A DNA stretch of 64,000 nucleotides. Origin: Cyanidioschyzon merolae (taxonomy: Eukaryota). Positions 2 to 51,430 of this stretch are shown in pieces (the first letter of the stretch is position 1; each line of letters starts with the position of its first letter). The stretch lies in NCBI GenBank assembly GCA_000091205.1, contig AP006502.2, one strand, 5' to 3'. A program made the translations under genes and the position numbers. Below the pieces are notes generated by a model. It did not search any database, was not told the DNA's origin, and saw nothing but the letters and a program-made list of their open reading frames with translations.

Positions 2-265
2 GTCGCACCGCTCGCCGGAAACTCGGTTCACGTTGATCGCCGCTTCCTCGCACGCTACATGCCGAAACTGGACGCGTACCTCCACTATCGAATTATAGAT
101 GTTTCAACGGTAAAAGAGCTCTGCAGAAGGTGGTACCCGAACGTTTTTTCTCGAGCCCCAGCAAAGCAAGGCGCTCACCGTGCTCTGGACGATATTCGAG
201 AGAGTATATCTGAACTGGTGTTCTATCGTGAGAACGTCTTCCGGTTCCCGAATGACACCGCATAA
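2..265 (+). CDS. Oligoribonuclease (Orn/REX2-like 3'-5' exoribonuclease), C-terminal part; 5' end lies before the window
   Basis: Frame-2 translation from the window edge reads [46 protein letters not shown]...[22 protein letters not shown]. This is nearly collinear with the bacterial/eukaryotic Orn C-terminus (GNSIxxDRRFLxKYMP, HYRxxDVST, HxALxDIRESIxEL). Stop at 263-265. Confidence 0.8.
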
Positions 266-1198
266 CGAGCTTTGACTGAGCAGAGGCCATGTGCCTTGGT
301 ATGGGTACAGCGCATGCTCTCGAGACATGCCGGAGAGGTACGACCGTCGACAGATCGGGAATTCGTCGGGTGCACCAAAGGCCGCAGCATGCCCTGTAAC
401 GCTGCCTGTTTGGGTGCAATCCACTTCCTCAGCGTCCAGTGCTTTGAATGATGGACACGCTTCCTGGAATGTGCGAATAAGAGATTCCGGGACTGCAGGA
501 TCCTGGGGTATCGTCATGCTCTCAGAATAGAGCACTCAATGTTCGATTTGCGTATGCACCGAAAAAGGACCTGGCTCAGTTTGTCTGCTTGGCGAGCTGT
601 GATGCGGAATCATTGTGCTGATTCAATGTCGCTACTCTAACTGGAAGCGGCCACTAGTGTTAAATCTGAATGATAGTCTCGTCATCAAAGTAGTGTTTTC
701 CTGCACGGAACGCGATCTGATACCACCTTGAACTCTGCGACGTAGTGACCTCGGACTTGTCGGCGTGAACATTCTAGCCTCATCATGCACGCGCCGAACC
801 TCAAGATTTGCTTTCTACTCGGGCACGAAAGCTCATCTGGTAGCGAAATGAGCGATCATCGGCACACTGACGGGCATCTCCATTGCGTCACCAGCTGGGA
901 CAGGCGGCGCCGCGCAATGAGCCAGTGCGATAGGGTTGCCGCACTTGGGCGACAATAGGCATCGTTGGACTGCATATGATGTTTATTTGGTGAATCTGGC
1001 GATACTATGGTGCACCATGATTTCGATGATCGCCAAATGGTGTCAGATGCTTTCGCTTGGTTCTCCCGCATATTCCCCGGGCGCTTTCACGGAATCTGGT
1101 CTTTATGATTCCGGAATATGCCATGTAACATTCCACTGAAGACTCTTATGGACCCCTAGCCTTCACATGCTTCTCGTTTTCCTCTTCCATGTGAATTT

Positions 1199-2503
1199 TC
1201 ACTCGGCCGAGAGCTCCTGATAACCCGTCCAGCTTTCATTTGGTTTCAACTCTACACCCTTGTCATGAAATACTGCTGGTTCGATGCAAATGAATTTTTG
1301 CCAGTCAGGGTCGGATCCTTGTTGCCCGTAAGGATTCCATAAAGTGCAGTCTGTGAATCCGCGCTTGTCTATTTTCATCACTGTCAACGCTACCATATCG
1401 AAGAGCGCCATCTCATCGGGAGCGTTCTTGTAGACTCTATCGACAGCGGCCTCCACTGGAAGACCACTCAAAAGCACGGATTCCTCACGTTTCATGGTAT
1501 TTGCATCCATCTTGTCCAAATATTCCAGATTGTCGTATCCGAAGACTCGAATTTTGGACACGTCCCGGACGCGCAGATAATTGTGCAGCGCCGCTGTAAA
1601 GGGCATCGGCCGATCGGTTTCCAAGTTCGTGATGCGCAGCTCACAGCGCAGGCCCCGCAAATTTAGCGTCACAGCATACTCGGCAGAGAACTTGAAAGGA
1701 AACAAGTCGCGGTAGTGCGAGGGCACCTCTTCCGAAGAGAGCATCAGAACACAACGCGATGCAGTACCATTTTCTACCATATCGATACTCCGCAGCTTCC
1801 AGTCAACATTCCGTGCAAATCCGTGATTCGGGAGCGCTCCATCACTACCAAACTGGGGGAAACAAATTGGAATCCCTCCGCGAATTGGTTTCGATCGATC
1901 AAAAACGGCCTCTTCTGAGAGAAAAAGCATCTCCTCAGTGCCTTGGCGCGCTTTCCACGACGTGACGCAGGCTCCGAACAGGTACACATCGGCCACTTGT
2001 TTTGTCTGCTCGTTCTTTAGACGAACACAGGGTAAACCGTTCCGCCCGTCAACTAGGCAACCGGCCTCATCGCTTGGAACGCCAGACTCGGAGAGGCCGC
2101 TGGCCTTGCCTCCTGTGAGCTCTGCCGCCAGTTTGGCTGCCAAATCAGTGAACCGAGTGCCTGATGCGTCTCCTTGGCCAGGATTATTTAACTTCGCGCG
2201 GAGGCCAAGAGACAGCGGCACATAAGCGCCCTTCTTACGGTCCCATAGCCCAGGCGTCCACTGAGACCCCGATCGACCTGTTGCTCTGGCTTGCCGGAGA
2301 GACCCGCAGCAGCGCTGTCTACTAGTGCGCACCCCAAGCGGACAGCTAGAACTTAAACCACAGACCACAAACATGCTATAGTGATTGGTTGCAGGTACAA
2401 AGAAAAGGAGCTCTTTGGCCTGACCGGTCCGCAAGACGAGCACGGCTGTCCTAGAACTGCTTTCACGAAGTGCACGCTCCCGCATGATGAATGTGTGACG
2501 CAT
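1199..2503 (-). CDS. Glucose-6-phosphate 1-epimerase (aldose 1-epimerase-like, yeast YMR099C family). Conserved domain from about 2070 downward; N-terminal ~145 aa is a non-conserved S/R/G-rich extension, so the start codon is uncertain
   Basis: Motifs RGGIPICFPQFG, HGFARNVDWKL, LHNYLRVRDV and WNPYGQQ...ICIEPAV match the G6P 1-epimerase family signature. Single ORF of 434 aa. Confidence 0.7.
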   Translation of the reverse strand: MRHTFIMRERALRESSSRTAVLVLRTGQAKELLFFVPATNHYSMFVVCGLSSSCPLGVRTSRQRCCGSLRQARATGRSGSQWTPGLWDRKKGAYVPLSLGLRAKLNNPGQGDASGTRFTDLAAKLAAELTGGKASGLSESGVPSDEAGCLVDGRNGLPCVRLKNEQTKQVADVYLFGACVTSWKARQGTEEMLFLSEEAVFDRSKPIRGGIPICFPQFGSDGALPNHGFARNVDWKLRSIDMVENGTASRCVLMLSSEEVPSHYRDLFPFKFSAEYAVTLNLRGLRCELRITNLETDRPMPFTAALHNYLRVRDVSKIRVFGYDNLEYLDKMDANTMKREESVLLSGLPVEAAVDRVYKNAPDEMALFDMVALTVMKIDKRGFTDCTLWNPYGQQGSDPDWQKFICIEPAVFHDKGVELKPNESWTGYQELSAE

Positions 2504-2517
2504 TGCGCCGCCAACAG

Positions 2518-2706
2518 TGATACGGACGCCTCAACCCGACGCCCTCAGTGGCATGGCAAAACCGTTCTGTCTCCGTGCAGTACCTGCTTCAGCGGGATAA
2601 GCGCTACGGCGAGAGCTCAAAACAGCTACTCGGCACACGATAGAACATACGAAACGACCAGTATACCCGAGAGGAAGTATGGGTTATAGAACTTGAAGGT
2701 AGGCGC
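2518..2706 (+). repeat. Copy 1 of a ~190-bp dispersed repeat (second copy at 12443-12625), ~80 % identical, same orientation
   Basis: Manual alignment: the core gcacacgatagaac(a/g)(t/a)a(c/t)gaaacgaccagtat(ac/tt)ccgaga(g/a)gaagtatgggt(t/c)at(a/g)(g/t)aacttg(a/g)aag and flanking blocks are shared between the two loci. Confidence 0.6.
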
Positions 2707-3246
2707 TTCATCATTAACGCTTTCCCGAAATCCAGTATCCGTTCCGAATTCTGGAATCCAAGGTCAATCTAAACATTTTGTCATCTGAAAAACTTCAGTT
2801 ATGCGGAACGCTCCGCGTATTGGACGCCCTGCTCGCAAGCATCTCCAGTGGAGCTCTGGCCGCCTTGTCTGCCGCTAGCATCTTTTGTGCTACTGGGGGA
2901 TCACTGCTCCGACACAATGATAAGGTGGCATGGAAAATGGCCTAGTTCATTCAGTAACCCGCTTACGAGCGAGCAAGATTTGCGCTGATTGGCTAGTGCA
3001 CCCAGATGCACGCAACCGACGGCATGGAATTGGGTCAAGTCTGTTCAAGAATTCGTTCACGAACGAGTAACATTTTTGCTGTCGGGGTATCGTGCCTGAG
3101 TGCACGCATCCTGCACCATGAACGTGAGATCAGGTGAATGGAACAGCCCTGAACGTGTCGTATTCTTTAGTGTCATTTGCAGTGAAGGAAACGGCGCTGG
3201 AACAAAGCAAAAATGACGCCAAAGCGGGGCATCGCCGTCGGATCGG

Positions 3247-4794
3247 TTGCGCACACTAGACATCGCTGCGTCCGGGTTTGCTGGACTCGTAAGCGACCGA
3301 TTACTTCAGTTTATGGCGAAGAATCAAGAGGCACCCGGGGTTGATATCGCTCCTAAAGATGAAGACCTGGAAATTCTGGAGATGCGTGCATGTCTTGAAC
3401 TTCTCGGAATACACAGGGAGTCCGAGGGGGATCGGTACCAGGTGCTTCTGGATCCCGAAGGTGTAGTTCTTCAGCCGCAGTCCCCGGCGGGAATCAAAGG
3501 AGCAGAGGTCCTCTATGAGGCTTTATTAGAACGCTTACGAGCGTATGAACGGGGTAATTTTTACGTGACGGACTTGCTTAGCGGCGTGCGCTACATCTTC
3601 GCGTTGCTTCGCCGCTCCGGTTTCCTGAGCAGCGATCCTGTTCGGGTGGAAGTTCTGCTGCAGAACGTTCAGGCCTTTGCGGCTAGCGGCGGTCCAGATC
3701 GTGAAGCGCGCCAGAAACATGCGAGCGTTGCGCTCTCAGCCGCTGTGCTTCTATTCAATGCAATTGGCAACGCACCAGCGGCGCCACGCTGGAACCTGCT
3801 CCGCATCGAGACGCTGGCGGAGATCCTGCGGTGCGCAACTGCAGCGGACAAGGCGGACCGAGTCATCGCTTTCATGTTAAATCACGGCACCGACATGATC
3901 GAACGCTACTATTCCTCGCGCAGTTCGGAGTATCGTGCCGTTCTGGAGAACAATGATGCTGAAAATGGGATCCGCGAGGATGGCGACTTTACAACCGCGC
4001 GTTGTGGATACTACCGTGCTCTCTTCTACGCTTTGAAAGCCGCGGAGGAACATGTTCGATTCCGGACGGACATCATTGTCGACACCGATTTCGAGACCCT
4101 TCTGATTCAGACAGGATGCAGAGCCTTGGAAGTGGCGGAGACGAGCAAACTGGTCCAAGATTCTGATCGTGAAGTTGCTGTAGAAATTGTTTGTCGTGCA
4201 CTGGCTGCGCCGAGTTTCACCAAGTTCGCTGAACTACTACGCCTGGAAACGATTCAGGCCGACACGCATATGCGGTATGCATGTGAGGCACTAACGCTTT
4301 TGGACGAATCCCTCTATGAGAGCCTCTTGGCTGGCCACGGAAACGAGTCCGAGGTCACGGAAGCCGTACACAAACACAGGCAAATGATCGAAACCAAGCT
4401 TCGGGTGCTGCGGGTATCGCGGGCTTGTGCCCGTGGTGAATACGCTGCGGAAAAGCCTGAGAGGTCCAGCGAAGAACCAGCATGCGATTCGAAGAGTCAT
4501 CGCGGCGCGCGTATTCTGCCGTATGCAGCCTTAGCGAAACATGTGGGTATGACGGAGAGCGATATGAATCTTGATGAGGAGGTAGAGAAATGGATCATAT
4601 TAGCAATACAATTTGGTGTTCTGAGAGCAAAGATTGATCAAGCGAAGAAAATGATTCGCATCGATTATGCCTTTGATCCAGATTCGAGCACGAGCCGAGA
4701 AAGTTGGCAACTTGTAGCTGGTCGCCTAGAGCGACTCCGCCTCCAGATAGCGCAAATCGCAGACACCACGGAGTCGATTTTGCTAGCACCGTAG
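3247..4794 (+). CDS. PCI-domain protein (proteasome-lid / CSN / eIF3-subunit-like); function not resolved
   Basis: 515-aa uninterrupted ORF. The C-terminus (ILPYAALAKHVGMTESDMNLDEEVEKWIILAIQFGVLRAKIDQAKKMIRI) has the PCI winged-helix pattern; upstream is helical-repeat-like. Confidence 0.55.
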   Translation: MRTLDIAASGFAGLVSDRLLQFMAKNQEAPGVDIAPKDEDLEILEMRACLELLGIHRESEGDRYQVLLDPEGVVLQPQSPAGIKGAEVLYEALLERLRAYERGNFYVTDLLSGVRYIFALLRRSGFLSSDPVRVEVLLQNVQAFAASGGPDREARQKHASVALSAAVLLFNAIGNAPAAPRWNLLRIETLAEILRCATAADKADRVIAFMLNHGTDMIERYYSSRSSEYRAVLENNDAENGIREDGDFTTARCGYYRALFYALKAAEEHVRFRTDIIVDTDFETLLIQTGCRALEVAETSKLVQDSDREVAVEIVCRALAAPSFTKFAELLRLETIQADTHMRYACEALTLLDESLYESLLAGHGNESEVTEAVHKHRQMIETKLRVLRVSRACARGEYAAEKPERSSEEPACDSKSHRGARILPYAALAKHVGMTESDMNLDEEVEKWIILAIQFGVLRAKIDQAKKMIRIDYAFDPDSSTSRESWQLVAGRLERLRLQIAQIADTTESILLAP

Positions 4795-7069
4795 ACGGGG
4801 ACTTTGTATGGCTGCGTCCTGGTGGGCATCGGTAGAAAGCTGACGAGAGTTACCTATGATTCTTAACGTAGAAGGCGAACATGGTGACGGAATCCGCTAT
4901 GAAGGTAGCGGGCGTCTTGACTTTTGCAGCCGCAGTTGCGTGCATTCATTATTAGCGAATGAGGTTGGCATCCTATCGAGCGTGCAATATCGCTCTCATG
5001 CAGCATATTTGGTGAAACATTTCCAAACAAATGTTTTAGTTTGTTCGACAGTTCAGCTACCTGCAGCATCTCCCGGTCACAGGTATCACTCTTCTTCAGA
5101 TGGACCTGCGGGTTCAAGCTCTGAAATAATTCCTATATGCATTGGATGGATGCGCGCTTTGGAAAAAAATGCAACAAGCGATTGCCTGTCCCATGACGAT
5201 GCAGGAAAGACCACTCGTGGCTAATAGGGCACCGGTTCCGTCTCATACCAGGAACGAGCGAAGGCATAACGCTTCGGGAGAGGTTTCTCTGCGCTCGAGC
5301 CGCTTTTCCAAAGCGCACGCCTAACCGACAAATGAGGAAAACGTGCTTTTTTAGATCATTACGGCTTGCGATTTTCAGACGGGATTCTGTCAGGTCTCAA
5401 GCATGCAGTCTCCGAGCGTGCCAGCGTCTGCTGTATACAAGTTGCCCGATGAGAAGCCTATGAACCGAGGAAGACGAATCTCCCCGCCCTGCATTTTTTG
5501 ACCATCACCATCTCTCGTGATTGATCGTAAAGTCCGTCGAAAAAGCTTGAAAGCATGATGTCGCAGTCGACCGAAGCGTGCTGTTCCGTCAGACGGTATG
5601 GTCCCTGTCACGCAAACTGCTTCTCCACGTGAGCTCTGTTGCACTTCGTTTACCGTTGAATGCTCCACGACCGTCAACATTCATATTCGGCAGTGCGCAA
5701 GCTAAACAGCTCGCCAAACAGAGGGGCTATGAGTCCGCCACTCTTTCCTCGCCATGTTCTATAAGTGGGGAACAGCGAGCGGACGTGTGCCAGCGTGCGT
5801 GATATCTCGAGGGGTTCAACACTTAGAAGTGTATGCAGCAATAAGATTCCACGCGTTCGAAGTACAGCTGTACCGGGCGCTGAGGAAAATGTGCCCAGAC
5901 CCTAGCGCCTTCGTAAACGACCATCGCCAGAACTTTTTCAAAACATCGGATATCGGAACAAGTGGTTCGAGGGAAAGAGGTCGACAATGAAGTTTGCTTC
6001 ATGTAGACCGGATCATGGCTCCACCATAGTTCCGTCAGATGAAACACGAACACGGATCCTTTCAATATGTTCCTGCTTTTCGACTGTGCCCCTGTTTTTT
6101 GGTAGATGAAAGGCCTCAACATTCGAAGTCCAATCATCGCGGCTCACGGATTCATTCGTTGTTTTAGGATTCTCGATCTTCTTCTCGAATAGCTTCCTCT
6201 GTCTCCATGTTGTTGGGTTTGTAAAGTTACGAGTAGCAATATGACTCGCACCGCCATCGACCAAAGGGTTCGTGAAGCTACTGACGTCATTATCCGATGT
6301 ATGCGTACAATACTTTGTTCTTCCCTGTTCCTTACGTGTGGCATGCTCAAATCACGCATGCTTCAAGTTTTGGTCTTCCTGTTTCGAGGCAACTCGTGGG
6401 CGCAACAATTCGAGCAGAGAGATTGGTAATGAGCGAAATACGAAATCGGTTCTGAACGACTTGGTCACAATCCCACGCAAAAAGTTCACTGAACTCCCCA
6501 AGACAACCATTCGGTTCCATGCGAGAAGCAAACCCCCGGCTCTTTGCGGCAATAAACGGAACGGCATTGCGCAACACCATTGCCCATGCCCTGTGATAGA
6601 CTACCAGAAGCACCCGCCCATTCTGTTCAGACAAAAATGGGTTTCGTACTTGGAATGCAGTTATGGTTCACATGGCTTCCAGTGGAGCGTTTGTCAAAGA
6701 TTTCCACGACGGAAGTATAGGGCGCATCGCATTTCTCGACTTGATTTCCAGCCTTTCTTTTCCCCATGGTACTTGGATCATCATGGACGAGCTCGCTTCC
6801 CAGAAATCCTCCTTCGGGCCGCAAAGCTAACACTGGCGCGTCCAGCGGACAGCTTCCTCACCGAGAAGATCCCCCAGAGGAACACGGTGTGCGTAAGGCA
6901 TGGTACCGGGCGCGGAAACCGAGGAGGGCATGGCAACGTGCCTTCTGCACCCGATAGAAGCACGTACCGAGTTACGAAGCACGCGTTTGTCGTGAAACAG
7001 GACAGCTCTCGGAGAAGGGTGTGTGTTGGACATATAGGAACAAACGACTACAGCTAAACTTCACTTGTA

Positions 7070-7220
7070 AAAACCTCGCACCTCGGCTGTACACAAACGA
7101 GACGATGAAAACGACAAGGGATGCATGAATCGCTTCTTTAGCCTGTGGATGCATTGCGCAAGCAATAGCTGGAAACAGCGAAATCAATACTTGAACGCTG
7201 CGATCAATATCCTCCGATGA
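7070..7220 (+). pseudogene. Isolated relic of a TnpB/Fanzor-like C-terminus (zinc-finger remnant plus RuvC-III motif)
   Basis: Frame-0 peptide ...KGCMNRFFSLWMHCASNSWKQRNQYLNAAINILR* fits the TnpB pattern HC..(x)..DRDxNAAxNIL. It is short and surrounded by stops. Confidence 0.35.
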
Positions 7221-7638
7221 CCTACAAGAGAGCAGGACGAAAAGAGAGTCCAGCGTTTCCAAAGCCAGCGTTTATCTACAGCAAGCGGAAAGCGTCGAAG
7301 AGAACTTCCGCACAGTCTGGTGTTGGTGCCACGATGAAGAGACCCAAAGTTGGTGAGTACGCCAATTTCCCTTTCTGGACACTTTCAATTTTCTTCTGAA
7401 ATGGGTGTATCAGCGTATTCTTAACTGCAATATCTAGTTTGATTCTAACGCACGATCGATGCATCCCATCAGAGAGACGCTCATGCAGCGAATCCAGGAA
7501 GCGGAGAAGACGCTCTACGAAGCGCGTCGTCGCCCAGAATACGTCGCTGCGGCGGCATCGACCGGGGCGAAGCGCGCCTCTACGCTCAAAAAGCGACGTT
7601 TGTCTCCTGGTACGAACTAGACCTTTTCATCAGGTGCA

Positions 7639-9363
7639 ATGTTGGGTTTCGCCCGCCCAGGTGCAAGTGGACTTTTAAAGGAAGGTGGTCAACATTTCTA
7701 CGGAATTCAGGAAGCTGTTCTCAAGAACATCGAGGCCTGTAAAGTCTTGGCGAGCATCGTCCGGACGAGTTACGGCCCAAACGGGAGAAACAAACTCATC
7801 AGCAACCGTTTGAATAAGATTTTCATCACATCAGATGCAGCTACAATTGTTCGGGAACTTGAGGTTGTCCATCCTGCCGCAAAAATGGTTGTGGCAGCGT
7901 CGCAGGCACAGGAGCGAGACGTCGGTGACGGCACCGGCCTTGTGCTCGTGCTTGCCGGTGAGTTGCTGAACCAGGCAGCCGATCTTCTGCACCAGGGTCT
8001 ACATCCAAGTGAAATTGTGAAAGGATACAAAAGATCATGCGAAGAGGCTTTGAAGATCATGGAAGAAGGGACTCTCCAAGTGAGACGGGTTGACGACTTG
8101 AGAGACGCCGCTGCTGTCGCTGAGGCGCTGGAGGCGTGTCTTGCGAGCAAGCACTGGGGCGCGGAAGCTTTCCTGGCACGACTGGTAGCCGAAGCCTGCA
8201 TCCAGGTCCTGCCTGGCTACTTCGATGGGAGCGCAGTCAACGATGTGCCTCTGGCGGAATTCGCCGATGATGAGGAAACTCGTGAGCGGCTTCGTCGATT
8301 CAATATCGATAACGTCCGTGTCGTGAAGGTACTCGGCGGCTCGCTCTCTGAATCAAGCCTCGTTCGCGGAACTGTGCTGGTGCGAGACACCGAGGGTACA
8401 GTGAAACACATCAAAGACGCCAAGGTTGCTCTGTTTACGAACGATGTCGATACGTTACAGATGGAAACAAAAGGCACCGTTGTCTTACACTCTGGAAAAG
8501 AGCTGGAGTCGTACACAAAGACGGAAGAGCAGATTCTGGGCGAACGCATCCGCAAACTCTCCGAGGCAGGGGTGAATGTAGTGGTTACCGGAGGCAAATT
8601 CGGCGAGATTGCCTTACACTATTTGGAAATGCACGGTATCATGGCGATTCGGTGCCCGTCGAAGTATGACCTGCGTCGGGTGGTCCGCGCTACCAATGCC
8701 GTGGCGGTTTTGTCGCTAGGAGATACGCCACCATCGCTGGAAGAAATCGGCTCCTGTGATGAGGTAAGCGTGGAAGAACGCGGCTCAACGAAGATGATCG
8801 TTTTCGGTCAGCGCAGTGATGCCACGAGAATCTCCACCATTGTTTTACGAGGCGCGACACAAAACCTATTGGATGATGTAGAGAGAGCCATCGACGATGC
8901 AGTGCACATGTTCAAGGTTCTGGCGTGCCGGGACCCGCGCCTCGTTGCGGGGGCGGGCGCCCTTGAGATGGAACTTGCGAGCCGCCTTCACGATTTTGCA
9001 GACCGCGCGAAAGGCCTCGACCAGTTACCCATGCAGCATTTCGCGGAAGCTCTCAAGATTATCCCGCGGACGCTCGCCGAGAACGCCGGGCAGAATACGA
9101 CGGAAGTCATGACGCGGCTCTATGCGGCACATCGCCAGGGTCATAGCCATGCTGGTGTGGATATCCGCCTCGAGTCTGGGACGATGTCCACGGGATCTGA
9201 AGCTCGAGGCATCATCAATGCCAACGAGTACAAGATATGGGATTCGCTTGCAGTAAAAAACGCAGCGATCCGGAAAGCAGTGGACGTGGCATGTACGATT
9301 CTGATGGTGGATGCCTTGATCATGGCGAAGCAGGTCAGTGGTGCCGGCTCCGGTCACGGCTAG
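7639..9363 (+). CDS. CCT8: T-complex protein 1 subunit theta (CCT8)
   Basis: 574 aa. LLKEGGQHFYGIQEAVLKNIEACKVLASIVRTSYGPNGRNK...TSDAATIVRELEVVHPAAKM...GDGTGLVLVLAGELL is collinear with CCT theta. Group II chaperonin motifs are present throughout. Confidence 0.9.
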   Translation: MLGFARPGASGLLKEGGQHFYGIQEAVLKNIEACKVLASIVRTSYGPNGRNKLISNRLNKIFITSDAATIVRELEVVHPAAKMVVAASQAQERDVGDGTGLVLVLAGELLNQAADLLHQGLHPSEIVKGYKRSCEEALKIMEEGTLQVRRVDDLRDAAAVAEALEACLASKHWGAEAFLARLVAEACIQVLPGYFDGSAVNDVPLAEFADDEETRERLRRFNIDNVRVVKVLGGSLSESSLVRGTVLVRDTEGTVKHIKDAKVALFTNDVDTLQMETKGTVVLHSGKELESYTKTEEQILGERIRKLSEAGVNVVVTGGKFGEIALHYLEMHGIMAIRCPSKYDLRRVVRATNAVAVLSLGDTPPSLEEIGSCDEVSVEERGSTKMIVFGQRSDATRISTIVLRGATQNLLDDVERAIDDAVHMFKVLACRDPRLVAGAGALEMELASRLHDFADRAKGLDQLPMQHFAEALKIIPRTLAENAGQNTTEVMTRLYAAHRQGHSHAGVDIRLESGTMSTGSEARGIINANEYKIWDSLAVKNAAIRKAVDVACTILMVDALIMAKQVSGAGSGHG

Positions 9364-12300: not shown

Positions 12301-12442
12301 ATGCTGACTTGTGCGGAATCACGGGAAGCGTTCCAAACGTTTCAGTGTGTATGCCCGAGTTAGCTTTGCGCAGTCGTTCCACTGAATACGAATATGGGTA
12401 CATGCGTTCCCAACTCAATGCAGCAATCCTGTACAAAGAAAA

Positions 12443-12625
12443 GATCCCATCGAGCCGATGCCCTCTGTGGAATGGCAAAGCTGTTCTGTTTTTGTGCTGC
12501 ACCCGCTCCAGCTGTTTAGGCGCTGTTGCGGATGCTCTCGGCAGGCGCTAGGCACACGATAGAACGAATGAAACGACCAGTATTTCCGAGAAGAAGTATG
12601 GGTCATGTAACTTGGAAGCAGCATA
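12443..12625 (+). repeat. Copy 2 of the ~190-bp dispersed repeat, 318 bp upstream of the eIF1 ATG
   Basis: See copy 1 (2518-2706). Confidence 0.6.
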
Positions 12626-12942
12626 TGGATCGATGGATGCCTCGCCGCGCACCGAAACAAAAAACCAAAAAAAAGAAAGGAAAAGAAGAGTCGCTCATTC
12701 GGAGAACGCTGGAATATGGAAACGCCGTGTCAATTAAAAAAATAGAACAAAATTACCACACCGTGTCCAGGATCGCGAAGCGCAGGCCGACGTCCGTCGA
12801 ACGCGGCGCCTACGTGCCACGCGTATTTCGCATGGAAACTGTTGTTGTAGCGTCGCACCCCGAAGCTCACGAGAGCGTGCTTTCTTAACTTGGCCCTAGC
12901 ACGTGAGCTGAAGCATACTCCCCCAACGGCCAGACAAGTTTT

Positions 12943-13284: not shown

Positions 13285-13749
13285 GGAAAATGTTTCACGA
13301 AGGTCTCCAAAACGACCATCAAGTGAAATACACGTGGCGGTGGGGTTACTCCACACAGCTTCCGTACCAGCGTGAGCAGCGGTGTCTGGGCTCTTGGCTG
13401 CTTGCATCAGTGCGCTCGCAGAATACTGATCTTCGGGGAGCGCGAAGCTCCAGGGCAGAACGCGACCTGTGCGCTTCACGGTGGAAGCGGTTTGCCTCTA
13501 TGGTTTGGAAGAAAATAGGTTCGATTGAACCCAATGGTCATGTCCTGCGGAGCGAGCAGGACCAATCGAGGACAGAGAATGTTGCGACGCAGGTAGTGCT
13601 GGATGCGTGGCAAAACATTCAGAGGCAACGGTGGCAATATACCGCCTGCGCTACTGATATGCGTGTAAAAGGTAAGATGAATGGACTGGACAAAAGAAAT
13701 CGCAGCCTCGCCCAGACCTTAGGATAATTGCCGTATTCAATGCTGTGAC

Positions 13750-15205
13750 ACCCCCGATGCGTGCCATCGAATGCTTTTTTGTCAGTGTAGAGCAGGAGAT
13801 GGAAATCAAGATGCAATACACCGTAGAGATCGTAGGCGATTTCCCTGCAGGATAGATATTCTTAACTGAACAGTGCAAGGAGGACTGCATTAATCCGTCA
13901 GGTCAGTCATACCGAAATACACAGATAATCGACGAACGCTGACAGAAACAAATATATGCGCTCCACGCTAATAACAGATATTCTCAAAGCGTGCTTGCGG
14001 TCCTTGGTAGTAAACGGACCATTGATCACCTCACGAAGAGCAATAGCGACGATAGCGGACACATCGGCGTCTCTGTTTCTCAGCAGTTGGATCGTCCGGT
14101 CCCGCAAACAATGGGGTACAGTCGCAAAATTCCTAGTTCAAGCACCGCTATCTTTCACTGAAATCGCAATGGCAGAATTCCTAGAAGCTTGCGATCGGTA
14201 TGAAGCACAGATAAGTCGGTTTGTTTTTTTTTCAGTCGATGAGACTTCCCTCTGACAAAACGGTCTCAGCGCATATGGGTACTCGCGGAGCAGGAAGCCC
14301 CCTGTATGCACGATGGAAATCGAGAAGAACGAGGACATCTTCCTCTGTTCTAACTGCAGGGAATTCATCTGGCGGCCTCCGTTTCGCTCGTAGAGAGGGC
14401 TCATCCAACAGCATCGTTTTCGTAGCATCATTCAAGACTTTTCCCCTTACGTCTAATGACTTCCATCTATCGGACAACGGAAAATTTCACCGTTCTCTGT
14501 GCGTTGGAACTTTTGCCGACGCTAACGGGGTAGAGCTGCTTTTCATTCCTGTGTAGGCCCCGTGGTTCAACTCCATCGAAGGAGCGTTTTCTATCGTGAA
14601 ACTTAACGATCGCGTCGCTGGACAAGTCCCTACGGCTTCCAGCACACTGGGGCACTTATTGACTTTCTAGCTCTGCGAATTTCCATACCTAAAGGCATAA
14701 AGAGCAGCTTTCATGCGAAGAATTACAAAATCCAAGGGAAGGGTATGGAGATGGAAATCGAGGATCCTGGAGGCCCGCCATCCTCGGCTGCCGGAAAAGA
14801 ACGAATAGAATCCTCTTCTCGCGAAAAGCCGAACGAAGAAGAGCCAGTGACGAAGAAGAAGATGGGAAATGGGTAAGGACAGTGGTTCGCCCGATGGTAC
14901 GATGACGAGACTGTTGTGACACAGGGAGCACGAGTACTAGTAATCCTTGCAATAATGTGTTCAACCAGCGGCGGGAAACGCATGGAGTTCTTGAACCGAG
15001 ACTTCAACGCCGCCATTCATATCAGAAGATGTGCGGTGCTCAAGACAAGATCCGCGGAGCTGACACGACCCAACTTCCTGGGGCAGTCTCTCAGGCTCGA
15101 AGTGCACGGTGAAAAACTGCAACCGATAGCAGGGGAACGGTCAGAAACGGCTGGGAGGCGCCTGTGAGTTGGTATATATATGCAGCCTATGGCAGCGAAA
15201 CGTTC
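13750..15205 (+). mobile_element. Long copy (A) of a TnpB/Fanzor-like DNA element, ORF degenerate (frameshifts and stops). Fills the spacer between the eIF1 and CCT2 3' ends
   Basis: C-terminal peptide CSTSGGKRMEFLNRDFNAAIHIRRCAVL gives the RuvC-III DRDxNAAxNI hallmark. About 1.4 kb is collinear at nucleotide level with copy C (49415-50800, minus). The 3' module ctctcaggctcgaag...ggctgggaggcgcctg...tatatatg is shared with copies B, C and D. Confidence 0.55.
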
Positions 15206-15287
15206 TCGCGCCATGAACCGCAGGCAGGATCTGGTGACTTGCATTTCGAGTTTCTTCTGCGCATGACTGGGACGTGCAAGGACCATT

Positions 15288-16901
15288 TTACATATGAGGG
15301 TGTGCAGGTTCCATTTTCCTAGGCGCTGATTTGATAACATCATCCACGCGGAGGATCATTTCAGCTGCTTCTGTTGCGGATGAAAGCACGTGTGCTTTCA
15401 GTCGGAAAGACTCCACGACACCTAAAGCTCGGGCATCGGCGATAGAACCCGAGAGGATATCCAAACCAGCCGAAGTGTTGCCCTGAGCGTGCGCAGCTCG
15501 AAGCTCCGCCACGAGACTCGTCGCATCGAGACCCGCGTTTTCCGCGATAAGGCCTGGAAGACTGCGGAGAGCGCGAGCAAATGCCTCCGCCGCCAGCGCG
15601 GCTTTGCCGCCCATACGTGCCGCACACGCATCCACTGCATTCGCCATGAGTGCCTCCGAGCAACCGGCTCCCAAAACTAGTCGGGAGTCTACGACGAGTT
15701 GGCTCAGTACACAGAGGGCATCGTGCAACGAACGCTCAGCTTCATCGAGAATCTGCTGGTTCGCACCCCGGATGACGATCGAGCAAGCTTCTGGCGCCCG
15801 ACATCCCTGAAAATGCAGTACAGCGTCGTCCCCGATCATGATCTCTTCGATAACGGCACATTCACCGAGCCGAATGGCCCCCGGACTATCGAAGGTACTG
15901 ACGATTTCACCGCCGGTCACAAGCGCTAGGCGCTCAATGCCATCGAAATCTGCGTGTTCAATACTGTTGATACCATTATCCGTGAAAAATTGCTCCGGAC
16001 GATTGTAAATGAGTTGACGATTGACAAAAACATTGCATCCGTAACCGAGAATACGACGACATTTCTCTATCATCTTTTCCTGCTCCGCTTGTTCTATTTC
16101 CGCAACACGTGCAATTGACTCTGTCCGAACACGAGCACCATAGATTTTGATCTTATCCGTATCCATCGGTGTGTTGGCAATCAAAATTTTTGCATTTTCG
16201 ACACGTTTCTTCTGGCCTACGCCGAAGCGCTTCTCCAGAATGAAGCCTTCCGCCAGGAATGACTCATGAAGGGCACCGCCGGGTTTTTTAATGATTTTAA
16301 TATGATCCAGGTTCGTGCTACCTTGCAAGCGGATCACAGCATCTACCGCGATCTTCGCAAAGAGCTCCCTGCACTGCGACAGAACTTTCGAGGACAGCGC
16401 CGTGCGCGCAACGTTCATAAGCGCCTCGTAGCCAGCCGGAGTGTCTTTCGCGGGTAGGGCCATGGCGGCTTCTTCGAGTGCTTTCAGCGCCTCTCGATGG
16501 GCAGCACGGTATCCGGCTATGATCAACTGAGGGTGCAAGCGCCTTTCGAGGAGCTGTTCCGCTTCACGCAACAGCTCACCCGCTAAACAGCAAACCGAGG
16601 TGGTGCCGTCCCCGATCTCATCGTCCTGCACCAGAGCAATATCAACGAGGATCTTCACCGCTGGGTTATCAACGTACACAGACTTTAGGATTGTTGCACC
16701 GTCATTCGTAACACTGACCTCCCCAGAAGGAGAGAGGAGAATCTTATCCATCCCACGGGGCCCTAGCGTCGTTTTCAGCAAGTCCGTAATAGCCAGAGCA
16801 CCAGTGAGCAACGATAGGCGCGCGTTCTCTCCCTTCTCTTCGGTAGAACTCGACTTGAGGACTTTCTGGAGTCCAGTCGGTGGTAGCCTCAACTGCGTCA
16901 T
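15288..16901 (-). CDS. CCT2: T-complex protein 1 subunit beta (CCT2)
   Basis: 537 aa. [31 protein letters not shown]...[11 protein letters not shown]...[11 protein letters not shown] is collinear with CCT beta through to the C-terminus. Confidence 0.92.
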
Positions 16902-22025: not shown

Positions 22026-23364
22026 ATTCTTTTCTGATGACAAAACGTTTACATCGACCATGGATCCGAGGATTCGGAAAGTATAATGGCTTTCGGGAAA
22101 GCGTCCATCATGAAGCATCTAGCTTCAAGTTCTATCACCCATACATGCTCTCTGATATACTGGTCGTTTCGTATGTTCTATAGTGCGCCGACTAGCTGTT
22201 TTGAGCACCCGCCGTAGCGCTTATATACCGCTGAAGCAGGTGCTGCACGGAGACAGAACGGCTTTGGCATACCGCTGAGGGCGTCGGCTCGAGGCGTGGT
22301 TCATCGGACACGGAGTCGGAGTACTTAATCATTCTAGGAGCCTGGAAGCTGCGCGGAGAGACGCACTGCCTGCGGCGGCACGGTGCGATATACTGGGCGT
22401 CCACTGCGACCAGGGCGACGCCCAGACGCAGCATACACGCTCCTAGTCCCAGATTGAATTGCATTGCGGACGAGTAGCTCAGGTTTCTTTAAAGAACCCG
22501 CCACTGAAGGAAGCATGAAGCACTAGCTAGCCCCGAAGACTCGTCCGGCTCGCGGGACCTTCCGCCTAGAAGGTAAACTTTCCAAGATACTGAAACTTTT
22601 CCCCATTTCAACGCTTACAATTAAGATCAAACGAAACTGTTATCGAGTTGCTAGTCAGTGCATAGTTTCTGTTTTTTTTTCGCATCGACGTCGATGCTCG
22701 GTGGATCAGGGCCTAGTTCCATTCAGCGGCAGCGACGGCGTGCCAGAATCCTGATGGAAGTGCTTTAAGAGGCTGCTTGTTTGAAGGTTAGCCTATTTGC
22801 GCTCGGGTCGCTGCTCTTTCTATATTGTCCGGGAAGAGTTCTTCGACAAGCATTGACCTTAGACGGCGAGAAGCAGCGCTTAGAGTCACAGCAAAGCTGC
22901 TTTCTGCGAAAACTGCGCGCAGGACAAGCGGTGACGCTTCCTTCGAGAGCGGCGCTCTTGGTTTTGGTGCGACAGGAACGGCTCGCAGTTCGGTAGACTT
23001 GGGTTTGGGTGGAGCTCGGAGATTTAAGGTGGTGCGCGAGATTGATAAGCGTAAACGAGTGGCGCGTTCCGCAACGTGCGATTCTTCGTGGCACCGAGGA
23101 GAACGCACGCATCCTCTAGCTTGAGCGTCACGCATTTTGTTTTGCTTACGTTGAGGCCTTCATAGATTGGTGGCGTCTTTGACAAGATCCGGGAATTTTT
23201 CGTTGCCCAGGGGCGAGATTTTTGAGACCAGGGGGTATCCCAGCCAAGTTACCGGAACTGCACCGCACTCGTGGCCGGTGTTCAACGAACGGCGATTTTG
23301 AGAGTCTTCTGAGCACGTATCCAGCGGATATAGTAGCGTTCACGAGACACGTACGTGCTTACCC

Positions 23365-29128: not shown

Positions 29129-32100
29129 GCAGACACACCCTTCTCCGGGTTTGCGCTGTGCGTAAGTCTCCTATCGACAAGGTAAGCGCGTTTGAAAAAC
29201 CCGCTGTACGCCCTTCTGAAGTCAACTTTTCGAATGAAGACCCAAGGGGCTTGTAAAAAAACTGGCAGTACGGCTCGTGGTGCGATTGCTGTGCTGCCCC
29301 AAAGCTCTGGCAAGCAGCTCTGCCGCGAGTGCTCGCTGCCTACAGTCTGCCTTTTAAGTGACACCACACTCGACGACTGCTGATGCCAGTCTGCTTCCTC
29401 TGAAGACCTTCAAAGGCTTACCACAAGTGTTATCGTCTAAACGCTCCCAGTGTGTGGACGCTGAGGTGCCTCAGAGTATGCGGCGAAAACTCGCCCACAA
29501 CACGTCAAACATTCGAAGCGCATACCGCGGGATACTCGATGGTGCGTTCATGAGGCCGATTCGCTGCGCAGCGCGCGGCTGCCGCGGGCCTCAGACGCCA
29601 ACGATCTCAAATTGCGACGGTGATGGCGTGCGCGTCTGCCCGAGGTGCGCGCAACAGTCGCTGGCAATGATGCGGAGTTCTTCGGGATTGGGCTGGTGCG
29701 GAGGCCGCAGCTGGAGGCGGCCAGCGTAAGGATCAGATCCTCTGCACAACGGACTATGAAACGTATTGGGGCCGCGCCCCAGGTCAGATACCTCTGTGAT
29801 AGACATCGAGGTAACGCGCTCCACTGCATGAGTATTGGAACAGAGATTCCACGCATGAACCAGGGTAGCATCTGTACGTAGGGGGCATAGCTGAATCGAA
29901 CAAGCTCATGATCTTCGATGGAGCACTACTCCAGAACGGATAGAGCCTGCAACAGCCAGCAGTGAAACAGAGACCTTCTACCTGGTTCCTGGAGGCTTCC
30001 GCTGCTCGAAACAATCCTGACTTGATATAGGGTCCTGGAATGTGAAAATTTCCTGCTTCAGCGATAGCAGGGATATGAGGCGGTTGCATGCGCCGCCCCT
30101 GACGTTGAGAATCTTGTAACACGGGGCGCGTCGCTTCCTGCGAATCATGGCAGTGGCTCCACGGATGAGGCTATCTCGGCCAGCTTGGCTGCGATCTCGT
30201 GCTGATTTCGCTGCAATTGTCTCGCGTTCCCGGCTCGAATGCTTCCTCAGGCAATGGCGGGGGTCTCTCACCGCCCCAAGGGCCGTCCATGGAATCCCAC
30301 TCGTGCGATCTGGTTGAAAACGTTCCATATATAAATACAATGGAGCTTTCGAATTTCTGGTACACACTGTTTGTCGGAAATAAGCTCGTGATGCGGGCTT
30401 CCTCTCGTTCGCATTGTCGTCCACGTGACCGAGTAAACATCTAAAGCGATCAACTCGAACTGAGTCTCATGGAGCGATCCACGGTGCGCTGCATTATGCG
30501 TCCTGCGACCAACGCAGACCGCAGTATCCGCGAGGCAGCAATTGCAGATCCTAGTGACCGTGGAGCGCCTCGGCCAGACGCAAACACTGCGTCTCTGACA
30601 TTAGCGTCGTGCCGGGTGTTCTGTCAAGCAAAATTGTCCAGTGAGTTTACTACCATAGCATTCGGGGTAACAGTCTAGACTTCGTGTTGAAGGACGTTCA
30701 ATTGCCACGGCCGACTGTGAGTACTCCAACGAACAGGCTATTCGTCGCGAGGATGAGGTGCCCAGCGATTGCTGTACGATCTGTTCGTTCTATTCGCTTG
30801 GCTCGAGCCAATAGACCTATTGCGGGCAAAAAGGGCTCAAACCCATCGAAGCCAGGATCCTTTATGGAAACTCTAAACGCTACCTATTAGAACGGTATCT
30901 CTGTATTCAGCAGGGAAGCTGAAAATGAACAGGCTCAAGCGGCTGCACGAGAGCTGCCGCTGATCAGCGCTCATACACCACCTGCTTGGCGACCGAGGCC
31001 ACTTGTTACAGCCTGTCCAGTATCCCTGTAAGGAACAGAGGCCCAGTCCGGTAGACCTGCGAATTCGTACGGATATCCGCCGGTTGCGACGCATCCCAAC
31101 GGACATCTGGTCGAAGATCCCACAGACAGGGATCCCCTGGCTCGTATAAACGATCCTAAACCCAAAACATTCATGTTCAAACCCGAATTCGATGCTTTCG
31201 CAAAAAAACGCTTTTCTCAGAAAAGAACATTATCGACAAGTACCTGCCAGATTGATTTGATGGACAGAGCAGTTGCACTCACCATAGACACCTGATTGCT
31301 TGATTGATATCGGCATCTTGGAGAGCGTTTATCATGTTTCATCCTACCTCCGGGTTTTACCAGCTACCACAGGTACCTCCCTTGCGAGACAGCGGCCATT
31401 TCGTACGATCCACTCAGCGCGAAGCCTGCTACGGGCGTCCACAGTGGCGCCCACAGCGCCGGCGCGGATGCAGGACGGAGTCAGAACGCCTTTACCACAC
31501 CACTGGAGAAATCAGCTCGAAATGTGATTCACTCGTCACAGGGTCGGGACGCGTGGATATTCTGGGATATAGTAGACCGCTCAGACAGACCTACTGCTGG
31601 CACTGGCGCGAAACGAATCTCCAGGAGACCGTATCGACCAGGGCGGGGCCGAGACGCAGGCCGCCCTCTCCGGCTACAGAAGAGACTCTATTGCGGAGAG
31701 GTTGCTCCGGATTTGCCACAGCTTTCGGTACTGGAGGCGCACGGTGCTCCATTCTGCATACTCCTCCAACTGGCAGGATCTTTGTCCTAGACAGTAACCC
31801 TCCGAATGTACATAAATCATTCCTCGGTTCATCTCTTGCCTGGGACGCGGGGAACATCGATGAACTACTTGCCAGCTAGCACACAGTTTCTTTTGCCATT
31901 TTCTTTCTAGCTGCTGTCCAGTGGTTAGGTTCTCTCCCTAAAACGAGCCCATAGCGGACGACGCGGCACCGAGTACAGCTGCATCGGACGCGTCTCGCTA
32001 CACTCCTGTCAGGCAAAATTTGCACGATTCCTCTCACGTATCTGGGATATGCACACTAAAGCTTGGACCTCGCTCGTGTCGTCAAAACCAGCCTACGCAA

Positions 32101-39019: not shown

Positions 39020-39515
39020 CGTGTAGTGTATATATGCATCCCATTGCAGATGCCTCCCGGACTTTTTCGACCGGCCGCCCACTACTGGTTGTAACGTCAT
39101 CCCGTACAATTCGACCCTGAGCGGTTCTCCCACAAAGTCGGCTCGTATCAGCTCCGGGGGTCTCTTGTCCAGCACTGCACATCTCCCGATGTTGATAGCA
39201 GCGTTAAAGTCTCGGTTCGCGAACGCTATGCGTACCCTGCCTCTGGTTGAACTCACCATTGCAAGGATTCCTCGAACTTGTGTCCTCTGTTCTACTACAG
39301 TCTCGACCTCGTCCCGTCAGGCGAGCACCTTTTCTCGTCTACCTGTCCTCTTTTTCTTCGCCGCCGCGCGCTTTCCCTTGCTCGATGAAGGGCGAGAAGA
39401 GGATTTTTTCCTTGTTTTCGGACAGCCGGCAATGAGGCCCTCTAGGATCCGCGACTTCCATCTCTATACCTTAGCCTTTTTACATTTGTAAATGAACGCA
39501 CTTCGAGAGCATTTG
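39020..39515 (-). mobile_element. Short, internally deleted copy (B) of the TnpB/Fanzor-like element: 5' terminus joined to the 3' ~470 bp
   Basis: Peptide RIAFANRDFNAAINIGRCAVL, the 3' module and the ...gcatatatac terminus. The 5' junction aaatgct(c/t)t(c/t)cg matches the 5' end of copies A and C. Confidence 0.5.
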
Positions 39516-40678
39516 CTCTAAACCACGAAAAAAGCATTAAATGATACGCACTTGGCGCCAGAGCACAGTTGAGGTGAAGTGCTATGACAAGAATCCTGCA
39601 CGTGCCAGGTCCGCAGCACGTCTAACATGCTCGTTGCTTTGCTCAGGGCAGAAGGTTGAGGCGCGAGCCTGATTAGCGTTGACGCGATCTGTGTTCCCAT
39701 GAGCGAAGCTACATTCTGGTGCATCAGGCGCAGTTGAGCGGATATCGGTGAGCTCACAAGTCGCCACAGGGTATGGTGCTGTGTGCTAGCCAGTCACCGC
39801 CCGCCACGTAGAACCCCGATAGCAGGACACGCAGGATACGATTCGGAACGACGAGCAACCGGGGATCGGTGCTGACCTTCTTCAGCGCGTCCAGAGCGGA
39901 GGCGAACCCTGTGCTCTATGTTTTTTCGTTCTCGATAATAGTTCCAAGACGCTCAATAGCTTGCGCACCCGCTTCGTGTCCAGGATCCGTGAGCGTGCTT
40001 CCACCAAGCGCCAGGTGCGGCTGTCGTTCTGGAACGCTACCAGCTGTTGCGAAGCAATCGTCAGCGTCAAGGGTGCAGGCATTTCTCGAATACGGCAGCG
40101 TGGAGTAGCTCTGAAACGCACGTTCGTACTTCAGGGTGCAAATCGCGACCTGGTAGCCGTCGATGTCCGCGATGGTGCGCAGAGAAGATACCAAACGCAC
40201 CTATCCATCCATCTTCCCAACTATGCATGTGTGCATGTGTGCGTAAAAGCAAGCAGGCGGCTATCCATGCGTCTATGTGCACAGGCAACCAGCAAGCAAG
40301 CAATCAAGCAAGTTGCTTTCTCAGGTAGAAGACGATATTGTGACCTGTGCGCCACGGTCTTGTGGCCATTCAGCAGCTACTGGTATAGGCAACGCAGCAG
40401 GTGCAGGAAATGACTGCGGACTCCAGCGAGCGCTGTATCGATATTGGGACACATGTTGTGAGAGCTGAACTGCAGTTTATTGGTGTGCGTGTCCTTCCCT
40501 GCGGGGTTTCCGTCCGTCTGGTATGGGTCTCCCCATGAGCGCGTACGCAATCAGGAAACATCGCTTCGTAACGCTCGCCGGTTCCTTTCGATGACGTTTC
40601 TGCGCTCCATGCGGAGCCTCTACATAGCCGTATCTCGTTCATGATGCTAATGCATGACTTTCCATGATCATGCATACC

Positions 40679-49414: not shown

Positions 49415-50800
49415 TCCTGGGACCATATAGGATAAATTAATACTCATATGTAGACACCTCTCCGCCCTTTTCGACTCGCAGACTGTTACGCATTCAGTTT
49501 TGTCCAGACAACCTTCGAGCCTGAGAGGATACCCCGCGAAGTTGGATCGCGTCAGCTCCGCGGGTCCCGTCCTCAGCACCAATGATCGCCTGATGTTTAT
49601 GGCAGCATTAAAGTACCGGTTCATGAACTTCGTGTGGGCTCTGGCGCTGGTTGCGCTCATCAATGCAAGAATTGCGGGAACTCTCGTACTCTCTGTACCA
49701 TTTGATACTCGGTCAGCTCTCTGTGCGTTTCGATCGCAAAAGCGCTTCGCGGGCACTTCTCCAGGTCGACCTTCTGAAGTGGAGACCCCAGCTCACCCTT
49801 TTGTTTATTTTAAAACGAGCGAACTTGTTTGTTCGTTTTGGTGAGGACGTTCCCGGAAGCGGGAAAGACTTGCGGATGCAAGACCGGATGTATTCTGGTA
49901 TCACTGTGCGCTGAACGCTTAAGCGATTCTACCAATGGAGCGCTCAATAGGCTTAATTAAAGAAAAGCGTCCTTCGATGCGGTTGAACCACGGAACATAC
50001 GGAGGAATGCAAAGCAGTTCTACTCCGATAGAATCGGCAACAGCTCCAACGCAAGGGGAATAGAGAAATGCAACGTTGTCCAATAGAAAAGCGTCGCCAG
50101 ACGTCAGGGGAAAGTCTTCAATGGCTCGACGTAATGGGCGCTGTTGTATGAGTCTTCTCTACGAGCGAAACTGAGGCCGTAAAATGAATTCACCCCAGCT
50201 AGAACAGAAGATGGTGTCGTCATTCTCCGCGAGTTCAACCGTACATTCAGCAGGCGCCCAGATCTGCGAGTACCCATATACGCTCCGACCGTTTCATCCA
50301 AGGCAAGTCTCATCGAATGAAAGAACAGACCGACTTCACTCTGCCTCAGATCGATAGCGACGTTCCTGGAAACTGTCGTTGCGATTTCGATGGAGGACGG
50401 TCGTTCATGGCATTGGACATTTTCGCGACTGTATCCCAGTGTTTTTAGGACCATACGAACTAGCTATTGAGAAACAGATACGCCGTTGGCGGCTACCACT
50501 GTCGCTTTTGCTTTCCGTAAGGTGATCAACTGGTCGTTTGCTGCCATTTAACGCAGTCAGTCTTTAAGAATATCGGACATTGTCGCAGAGCGCATATTCA
50601 GGGTTCTTTCAGTGTTCCTTAGGTATCTGAGTTCTTTTACGTGGATGACCTGATGGAGGAATGCAGTCCTCCTTACACACGTCAGTAAAGAATATATATA
50701 TCCTGCAGGAAATTTTTCTACGATCTATAGAGTACATTGCATATTGACACTGATCTCCTGGTCGTCACCGCGAAAAAACATTCAATGACAAGCAGCAGTG
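49415..50800 (-). mobile_element. Long copy (C) of the TnpB/Fanzor-like element, degenerate. Its 3' terminus lies ~110 bp upstream of the ARM-repeat gene ATG
   Basis: Peptide FMNRYFNAAINIRRSLVL on the minus strand. About 1.4 kb is collinear with copy A, including upstream blocks (FFHSMRLALDETVGAYMGTR matches A's FFQSMRLPSDKTVSAHMGTR). Confidence 0.55.
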
Positions 50801-50885
50801 CTGGAACACAGTGAGTTGAGGACGATCAACGGAATGCTTGCTCGTATAATCTTTCATCTCAAGTGTTTTGCCCCTCTGCTGCGCG

Positions 50886-51430
50886 TCATCAAATGCTTTT
50901 TCGTGCTTTCTAGCAGACGCGTATGAACTGCGTTTGTTCTCAAAAACAAAACATATAAGGAAAAAATTATGGACATAGAATTCGGGGATCCTGGAGGATC
51001 GCCATCCCCGAGTTCCAGAGAGAAACTGAAAAATTTCCCTCTCGCCAACCATCGAGCGAAGAAGAGCTAGTGATCGAGAAGAAAAAGAAAATGAAATGCG
51101 GAGATAGGCGAAAAATCGTGTTTAGCTCACGGGACGGTGACGGGATTGTAGTGGCGCGGAGGGCACAAGTTCGCAGAAGCCTTGTAATGTTGAGTTCGAC
51201 TAAAGCGAATAATCGTGTAGAGTTCATGAACCGAGGACTTAACGCTTCCATCAATATCAGACGATGTGTAGCGCTGAAGGAATTAGCCTACGTACTTCGT
51301 GGGGGAGCCTCTCAGGCTCGAAGTGAACAAGAGAAACTGAAATCGATAGCGGGGAGTTCGTCAAAAAAGGCCGGAAGCGCCTGCTAGTTGATGTGTATAT
51401 GCACTCTGTGGTCGCGAAACCGATTTCGTA
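50886..51430 (+). mobile_element. Short, internally deleted copy (D), head-to-head with copy C (~90 bp between their 5' ends)
   Basis: ORF MIEKKKKMKCGDRRKIVFSS...NRGLNASINIRRCVAL plus the 3' module ctctcaggctcgaagtgaacaag...gcgcctgctagttgatgtgtatatgcac. The 5' junction is aaatgctttttcgtgctttctagc. Confidence 0.5.

Follow-up and report, generated by a model that had tools for sequence, protein, structure and literature searches.

Segments upstream of the PCI-protein and eIF1 genes of Cyanidioschyzon merolae as probable fragments of the Fanzor1-bearing CMe-1A transposon family

Bao and Jurka (2013; Mob DNA 4:12, PMC3627910) described from Cyanidioschyzon merolae the element CMe-1A, which has a consensus of 3169 bp, encodes a TnpB-like protein, Fanzor1, and is present in about 150 copies, while its first 635 bp occur also alone, in about 70 copies, as TE-N2_CMe. 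The copies of the family are about 80% identical to the consensus; terminal inverted repeats are absent from CMe-1A and TE-N2_CMe, whose target-site duplications could not be established in that work, and neither was assigned to any class (PMC3627910). Earlier, Nozaki et al. (2007, PMC1955436) had reported a novel interspersed repetitive element of 3.2 kb, with 253 copies on all chromosomes, said to be transcribed, whose truncated ORF is weakly related to a protein of the shrimp white spot syndrome virus; one Fanzor1 is listed in this virus (PMC3627910). Both elements come from C. merolae, belong to the same size class (3.2 kb and 3169 bp) and are dispersed, and the element of Nozaki et al. 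is very probably the CMe-1A family, as judged from size, host and viral relative rather than from a comparison of sequences. Nothing further on Fanzor in Cyanidioschyzon was found in the literature after Bao and Jurka.

A comparable system is known from Chlamydomonas reinhardtii, where CRe-1, CRe-2 and CRe-3 are Fanzor1-bearing non-autonomous Helitron2 elements with one end intact and the other truncated, a behavior called 'one-ended transposition'; variable duplications of 7-19 bp were observed mainly at the truncated copies, and short extra sequences at some of the junctions (PMC3627910). CMe-1A resembles these elements in carrying Fanzor1 without a transposase, in the truncation of one end, in the T-rich junction and, by the candidates seen at a few copies, in variable duplications. 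The geometry is different, however: the CRe elements keep the 3' end and have the T-rich target on the 5' side, where truncation occurs, whereas CMe-1A bears its T-rich tract on the end that is kept, upstream of Fanzor.

The segments considered here lie in a 64-kb stretch of DNA (the window), whose eIF1 and CCT-theta proteins match exactly the Cyanidioschyzon merolae 10D entries BAM83285 and BAM83283. The two segments (copies A and B) are like TE-N2_CMe, i.e., the 5' 635 bp of CMe-1A, in host, level of identity and the absence of terminal inverted repeats, but unlike it in extent, since, instead of the full 635 bp, copy A contains only positions ~1-258 and copy B positions ~58-257 with a variant end. 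Judging by the alignments, we are highly confident that both represent incomplete, non-functional remains of the CMe-1A / TE-N2_CMe terminal region, namely the first ~260 bp of the element, and nothing real was found to count against this identity. As fragments of an already published transposon family they are nothing new in identity; a minor new point is that one T-rich terminus is common to the copies, the internal stops differ, and direct repeats flank a few of them, a hint of one-ended copying.

Family copies and other repeats in the window

Positions 2536-2695 and 12455-12614 were paired by blastn (75.6% identity over 160 bp, E 2e-27 in the 64-kb search space), nhmmer extended the pairing to 2514-2702 and 12433-12621 (E 2e-26), and a global alignment of 2518-2706 with 12443-12625, the limits originally predicted, gave 70.4% identity (133/189). 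The places, the similarity and the common orientation of the two copies were thus recognized correctly, but the identity, put at ~80%, was too high (70.4% overall, 75.6% in the core), and the true limits are wider, reaching ~2800 in copy A and ~12748 in copy B. The number of copies had also been set too low, as not two but four of them (A, B, C and D) were found in the window by blastn/nhmmer self-comparison and by the core pattern; a degenerate 38-nt core occurs there exactly 4 times and not once in 100 shuffles. Furthermore, the ~190 bp, described as a stand-alone element, are a portion of units that measure ~650 bp and 3.17 kb. The published CMe-1A consensus (supplementary file 2 of Bao and Jurka, 2013), aligned to the window by blastn and nhmmer, matches all four copies with 66-83% identity, which is the level of the family.

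Copy A (2530..2800, minus strand) is a short form, corresponding to consensus positions ~1-258 and bearing a T-rich tract (2786-2800) at its terminus; in the blastn alignment 2785-2529 correspond to consensus positions 2-256, with 83.3% identity over 257 bp. On either side of it lie, as a candidate target-site duplication, direct repeats of 10 and 11 nt, ATACGGACGC (2520-2529) and ATGCGGAACGC (2801-2811), for which the Yellowstone allele reads ATGCGGACGC. Copy B (12447..12748, minus strand), the second short form, corresponds to consensus positions ~58-257, followed by a variant T/A-rich terminal segment of ~100 bp that stands in place of consensus 1-57. For this copy blastn aligned 12616-12450 with consensus positions 90-254 (82.6% over 167 bp) and nhmmer extended the match to 58-257. 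The variant end is common to copy B and the copies in loci L034 and L035 (71-72% over ~145 bp, E 1e-15 and 1e-13), and copy B directly adjoins a copy of another repeat, R1 (10957-12406). Past the breakpoint no significant match between the short copies and consensus 259-720 was obtained, and on this ground their interpretation as internally deleted elements with both ends was rejected.

What copies A and B retain, ~260 bp, is the end of the element that precedes the Fanzor1 gene. When the published orientation is applied, the two are minus-strand copies, antisense to the PCI and eIF1 genes and pointing away from both. Their resemblance is attributed to descent from one mobile element and not to a control element common to the two genes, and no host function is expected for either copy.

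Copy C (22026..22700, plus strand), missed in the original prediction, is a full unit of the TE-N2_CMe type corresponding to consensus 1-662; by blastn, 22036-22681 match consensus positions 2-640 with 82.3% identity over 648 bp. Over 268 bp (~22030-22297) it shares 86% identity with copy A, on the opposite strand, and not a single base separates its T-rich terminus from the end of a 1517-bp repeat (22025|22026). With a paralogue at an unrelated locus (L044/L039/L021) copy C shares 96-97% identity over exactly ~653 bp, and the flanks are unrelated. The Yellowstone population also has copy C, at the end of L060. Copy D (31253..31911, plus strand) is a diverged unit of the same type (consensus 5-648), after which comes the R1 copy 31997-33371. 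It also matches the family core pattern, and blastn aligned 31273-31823 with consensus positions 15-561 (66% over 557 bp; nhmmer E 3e-64); its blastn self-match, ~31256-31581, is more diverged.

Four further pieces of CMe-1A were found by nhmmer. The one at 14723..15173 (plus strand), internally deleted, joins consensus 881-1071 to 2842-3092 and lies within the composite repeat R3, downstream of eIF1. Another internally deleted piece, 39045..39586 (minus strand), consists of consensus 786-1069 plus 2831-3085 and gives a tblastn match to residues 522-582 of the Fanzor1 protein P0017 (56%). The piece at 49441..49796 (minus strand), also detected by tblastn, is derived from the 3' region (consensus 2737-3093), and inverted with respect to it is the internally deleted piece 50843..51389 (plus strand), made of consensus 784-1002 plus 2809-3089.

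As seen from self-comparison, the window is crowded with interspersed repeats, including R1 (~1.4 kb), R3 (a composite of ~1.6 kb) and a near-identical pair of 1517 bp. The R1 copies, 65-72% alike, are located at 5952-7415(+), 10957-12406(+), 31997-33371(-), 51436-52785(-) and 56515-57901(-), two of them directly beside copies B and D; no Pfam match was obtained for the ORFs of R1, nor does the CMe-1A consensus match this repeat. R3 (13743-15389, 38938-39587 and 49433-51609) is a composite of internally deleted CMe-1A (~785-1070 joined to ~2810-3090) and ~950 bp of other sequence; in 49433-51609 the ~950-bp part is flanked on both sides by the CMe-1A-derived part, in opposite orientations.

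The members of the 1517-bp pair, 20509-22025 and 25154-26670, have 6 differences, TG...CA ends and no visible target duplication, and they are probably two copies of a young, different transposon rather than a segmental duplication. On the minus strand of each there is a distant Fanzor-like C-terminal remnant (amino acids 443-580 of P0017, 30-32%). In the metagenomic contig L001 (Ga0080006_1142962) the first 1517-bp copy runs into the sequence that follows the second, skipping copy C and the kinase gene 23395-25080; in L060, from another sample, copy C, the protein kinase and the second 1517-bp repeat are contiguous. L001 either owes its structure to a collapse in assembly or represents a haplotype from which a repeat-mediated deletion removed the kinase gene. 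Apart from these repeats, an exact tandem duplication with a 60-bp unit (100% identity) occupies 43525-43644.

Dispersal and coding content of the family

A core pattern common to the four copies was used for a scan of metagenomes that carry C. merolae (Yellowstone hot springs), whose contigs are 99.3-99.5% identical to the window. The pattern matched 54 metagenome stretches, representing 17 distinct loci, or at least 18 when copy C is added, and a profile built from the copies raises the count to ~22; these counts refer to a restrictive pattern in the Yellowstone contigs and the 64-kb window. Most of the copies carry ~380 bp more beside the element originally described, which brings the unit to ~650 bp. 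In locus L052 such a unit, of 653 bp, is cleanly inserted inside an R1 repeat, as compared with five other R1 copies, and no target duplication is visible at this insertion. From the clean insertion into R1, and from the identity of copy C and L044 over the unit only, we infer that the unit moves as a block. The original prediction had named many copies at unrelated positions as the mark of a plain transposon, and this is what was observed: at least 18 loci beside unrelated genes, in both orientations.

A complete element is present in locus L016, where 4744-7914 correspond to consensus 2-3168 and the ~635-bp unit forms the 5' end. Between the copies in L016 and L007 an identity of ~73% continues for more than 2.2 kb beyond the unit, and in this extension there are ORFs with TnpB-like motifs. 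The metagenomes supplied an intact family protein, P0017, which over 517 aa shares 78% identity with the published Fanzor1 of CMe-1; 175 related proteins were found in hot-spring metagenomes. A Fanzor/TnpB protein is defined by a RuvC-like fold with the motif D...[TS][TS]..C4 zinc finger...RD; the family protein contains stretches resembling the Fanzor/TnpB motifs, DEFRTSYTHHELGC... and NRDFNAAI, as seen in its sequence. Pfam (with fragmentary and intact proteins), NCBIfam, and phmmer and profile searches against PDB returned no match for the protein. An AlphaFold2 model, calculated from an alignment of 11 sequences of close paralogues, had a pLDDT of 34 and was rejected as a basis for fold search. 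Many protein matches among P0017-P0136 are labelled PF26935; the Pfam search of these proteins returned no family at E<=0.1. The 649-bp family consensus contains no convincing ORF in any frame. Within the Fanzor1 coding part, 3-5 tandem units of ~77-79 bp, which correspond to consensus 2117-2195, were noticed in copies of L035 (623-774 and 10323-10627) and L025 (7663-7967).

Gene neighborhood and the possibility of an RNA gene

The leading idea of the original prediction was that the segments are a shared cis-regulatory module or a 5' leader of translation-related genes, and in its favor copies A and B do lie upstream of plus-strand genes, in the same orientation relative to them. The distances to the start codons differ, though, being 513 bp from the end of copy A to the PCI gene and 195 bp from the end of copy B to eIF1. 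Copies C, D and more than 14 further loci are situated beside unrelated genes, at either gene end (5' or 3') and in both orientations, with neighbors such as malate dehydrogenase, catalase, aldolase, a solute symporter, methyltransferases and fibrillin; moreover, one copy sits inside another repeat, R1. Neither is there any trace of the element at the syntenic eIF1/PCI locus of Cyanidiococcus yangmingshanensis (no match at E<=10), where the coding DNA is 72-83% identical. With unrelated neighbors, mixed orientation, insertion in a repeat and absence from the Cyanidiococcus locus, a regulatory module or leader exon retains next to no probability. Hardly more probable are genes for a family of small, structured non-coding RNAs, for which one could cite the well conserved core of ~50 nt with the A-box-like CTCAGTGGTATGG and the reported transcription of interspersed elements (Nozaki et al., PMC1955436). 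The D-arm-like motif pointed out in the original prediction is indeed there, as the best conserved part of the family, and, as was said there, it does not belong to a tRNA: ARAGORN detected no tRNA in the window, and the Rfam tRNA model gave no match even at E<=10. The conservation of the core is, besides, partly an artefact of the search pattern. The Rfam scan that had been suggested as a check yielded nothing meaningful: in the whole window no family reached its gathering threshold, and the sole match of copy A at E<=10 was a chance-level snoRNA (E 8.3). Folding energies are ordinary (z-scores from -0.7 to -1.6 against shuffles, on both strands), and RNAalifold with 18 copies returned -4.9 and -9.6 kcal/mol for the two strands, with covariation terms of practically zero (-0.21 and +0.22).

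As to the positions of the copies relative to genes, the predicted distance of 318 bp to the eIF1 start codon is borne out, the ATG being at 12943. The 547 bp given for the PCI gene lead to ~3254, which is not an ATG; the likely start is the ATG at 3313, according to the gene call in L001. On its other side (1199-2529) copy A is separated by 26 bp from the first ATG (2503) of a minus-strand aldose-1-epimerase ORF and points toward this ORF as the element would toward its Fanzor gene. The aldose-1-epimerase Pfam domain does not begin before residue 159 of 434, which makes the start codon uncertain, and likewise any promoter input from the transposon end.

In the block of PCI, CCT-theta, eIF1 and CCT-beta genes the intergenic regions 4795-7638, 9364-12942 and 13285-15287 measure 2845, 3580 and 2004 bp, the corresponding ones of Cyanidiococcus yangmingshanensis (L061/L062) being 1136, 1486 and 385 bp; what C. 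merolae has in addition consists largely of R1, R3 and CMe-1A-derived repeats. The apparent link between the PCI and eIF1 genes comes from remains of transposons, in a region of the chromosome crowded with repeats, and has little meaning for gene regulation. For annotation, the segments, together with the pieces of CMe-1A, R1 and R3, should be masked as repeats rather than recorded as conserved non-coding elements.

Ends of the element and origin of the short copies

Nearly all copies reach consensus position 1 (in the published orientation), outside which there is a T-rich tract that varies among the copies in length and composition; since the loci were fetched by a pattern in the first 260 bp, the sample is biased to copies keeping that end, and copies that have the other end without the position-1 end do exist (14723-15173, 39045-39586 and others). 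The copies that begin at position 1 end at ~258 (copy A and L048/L009), 351, 408, 640-662 (TE-N2 type), 791 and 3169. The subfamily with the variant terminus (copy B, L034 and L035) starts near 60 and ends at ~257 and 535-539. The breakpoint 257-258 recurs in at least three independent loci (A, B and L048/L009).

Flanking repeats, of varying length, were detected in 2-3 of 14 copies; in addition to copy A, the short copy in L048 has a junction-proximal direct repeat of 9 bp, TACATGGCG. Exact junction repeats of at least 8 bp are present in 2 of 14 copies against 1.6% of mismatched control pairs, a difference that is only suggestive, and an earlier statistic, in which the windows included element sequence, gave no excess of duplications over the controls. 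An 8-bp repeat at L044 was downgraded as a target-site duplication, its 3' copy lying in sequence that is homologous among the copies and probably belongs to the element.

Comparison of the first 60 nt with the reverse complement of the last 60 placed copy C, L044, the consensus and L016 within the shuffle null, i.e., no terminal inverted repeats were found, and a terminal direct repeat, ATTCTTT(T)CAG, was rejected as not significant against shuffles. Helitrons are recognized by a 5'-TC and a CTRR-3' terminus, a 3' subterminal hairpin and insertion, at A|T or after TTTT, that produces no duplication. Neither these termini nor asymmetric terminal inverted repeats were found in CMe-1A, the 3' end of which is ...GAAAGGCG and not CTRR; a GC-rich hairpin, GCCGCCA...TGGCGGC, is located ~25 nt from this end and is not specific.

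The original prediction also offered a two-copy MITE or SINE, of which the transposon stands, while the two copies, the MITE and the tRNA-derived SINE do not. Like MITEs, the short copies are short, non-coding, multi-copy, intergenic and derived from a larger element; unlike MITEs, they have no terminal inverted repeats, keep one parental end and show few and variable flanking repeats. The tRNA-derived SINE was rejected because the B-box-like GTTCTGTCTCC follows the A-box-like motif after only ~18 nt and no tRNA was found (ARAGORN; Rfam tRNA at E<=10).

How the short copies arose can be read in several ways. They may be products of decay, complete TE-N2_CMe or CMe-1A elements having lost what lies beyond ~258 through deletion or insertion of repeats, with no mechanism of copying implied. 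The age of the family (~80% identity to the consensus), the nested repeats that crowd the window, the absence of a flanking duplication from most copies, and copy B abutting an R1 copy, while copy D has the full unit beside its own, are all in keeping with it; the same break at 257-258 in at least three independent loci is not, nor are the direct repeats at both junctions in two of these three loci, which later deletions would not produce, and we regard decay as plausible without holding it to be probable. Another reading reverses the orientation, making the unit a retroposon, SINE-like or the 3' end of an RNA mobilized by a LINE, and inserted by target-primed reverse transcription. On the opposite strand all copies do have an A-rich end, variable in length and composition, as SINEs and 5'-truncated LINEs have, and, again as in those elements, truncation always affects the far end and the flanking repeats are variable (candidate duplications of 9-11 bp); C. 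merolae, besides, possesses 26 non-LTR retrotransposons, three of them with an intact reverse-transcriptase ORF (PMC1955436). This reading is nevertheless unlikely, since the intact Fanzor1 gene of the full-length element would be antisense to the supposed RNA intermediate, Fanzor1 genes have been reported in DNA transposons (PMC3627910), the tails contain non-A extensions, and the unit has no pol III head, no tRNA, 7SL or 5S-like one having been found by ARAGORN and Rfam. The remaining reading, which we put forward tentatively as a possible though doubtful one, is one-ended replicative copying from the T-rich terminus upstream of Fanzor1 with variable stops, the 635-bp and ~260-bp forms being products of premature termination with variable duplications of 8-11 bp. 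The recurrent end at 257-258 may fit a short subfamily or a deletion hot spot just as well as premature termination.

Under one-ended copying, the family would have spread by a process anchored at the T-rich terminus, in which early stops would give the ~260-bp form and longer products the ~650-bp TE-N2_CMe form and the complete, Fanzor1-bearing form of 3.17 kb. The element itself encodes only Fanzor1. If true, the process would be that of the one-ended CRe elements of Chlamydomonas in mirror image, and the cis-signals of mobilization would be located at the end opposite to the usual place of the Fanzor guide RNA. The wider interest of the segments is limited to the movement of Fanzor-carrying transposons, for which the truncation series and the few duplications provide a hypothesis testable on the complete genome.

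One more feature of the T-rich terminus was observed in the young pair, copy C and L044, which have in common ATTCTTTTC (22026-22034 in the window, 1460-1468 in L044), nine T-rich bases lying outside the published position 1; the published consensus may, consequently, be ~9 nt short at its 5' end.
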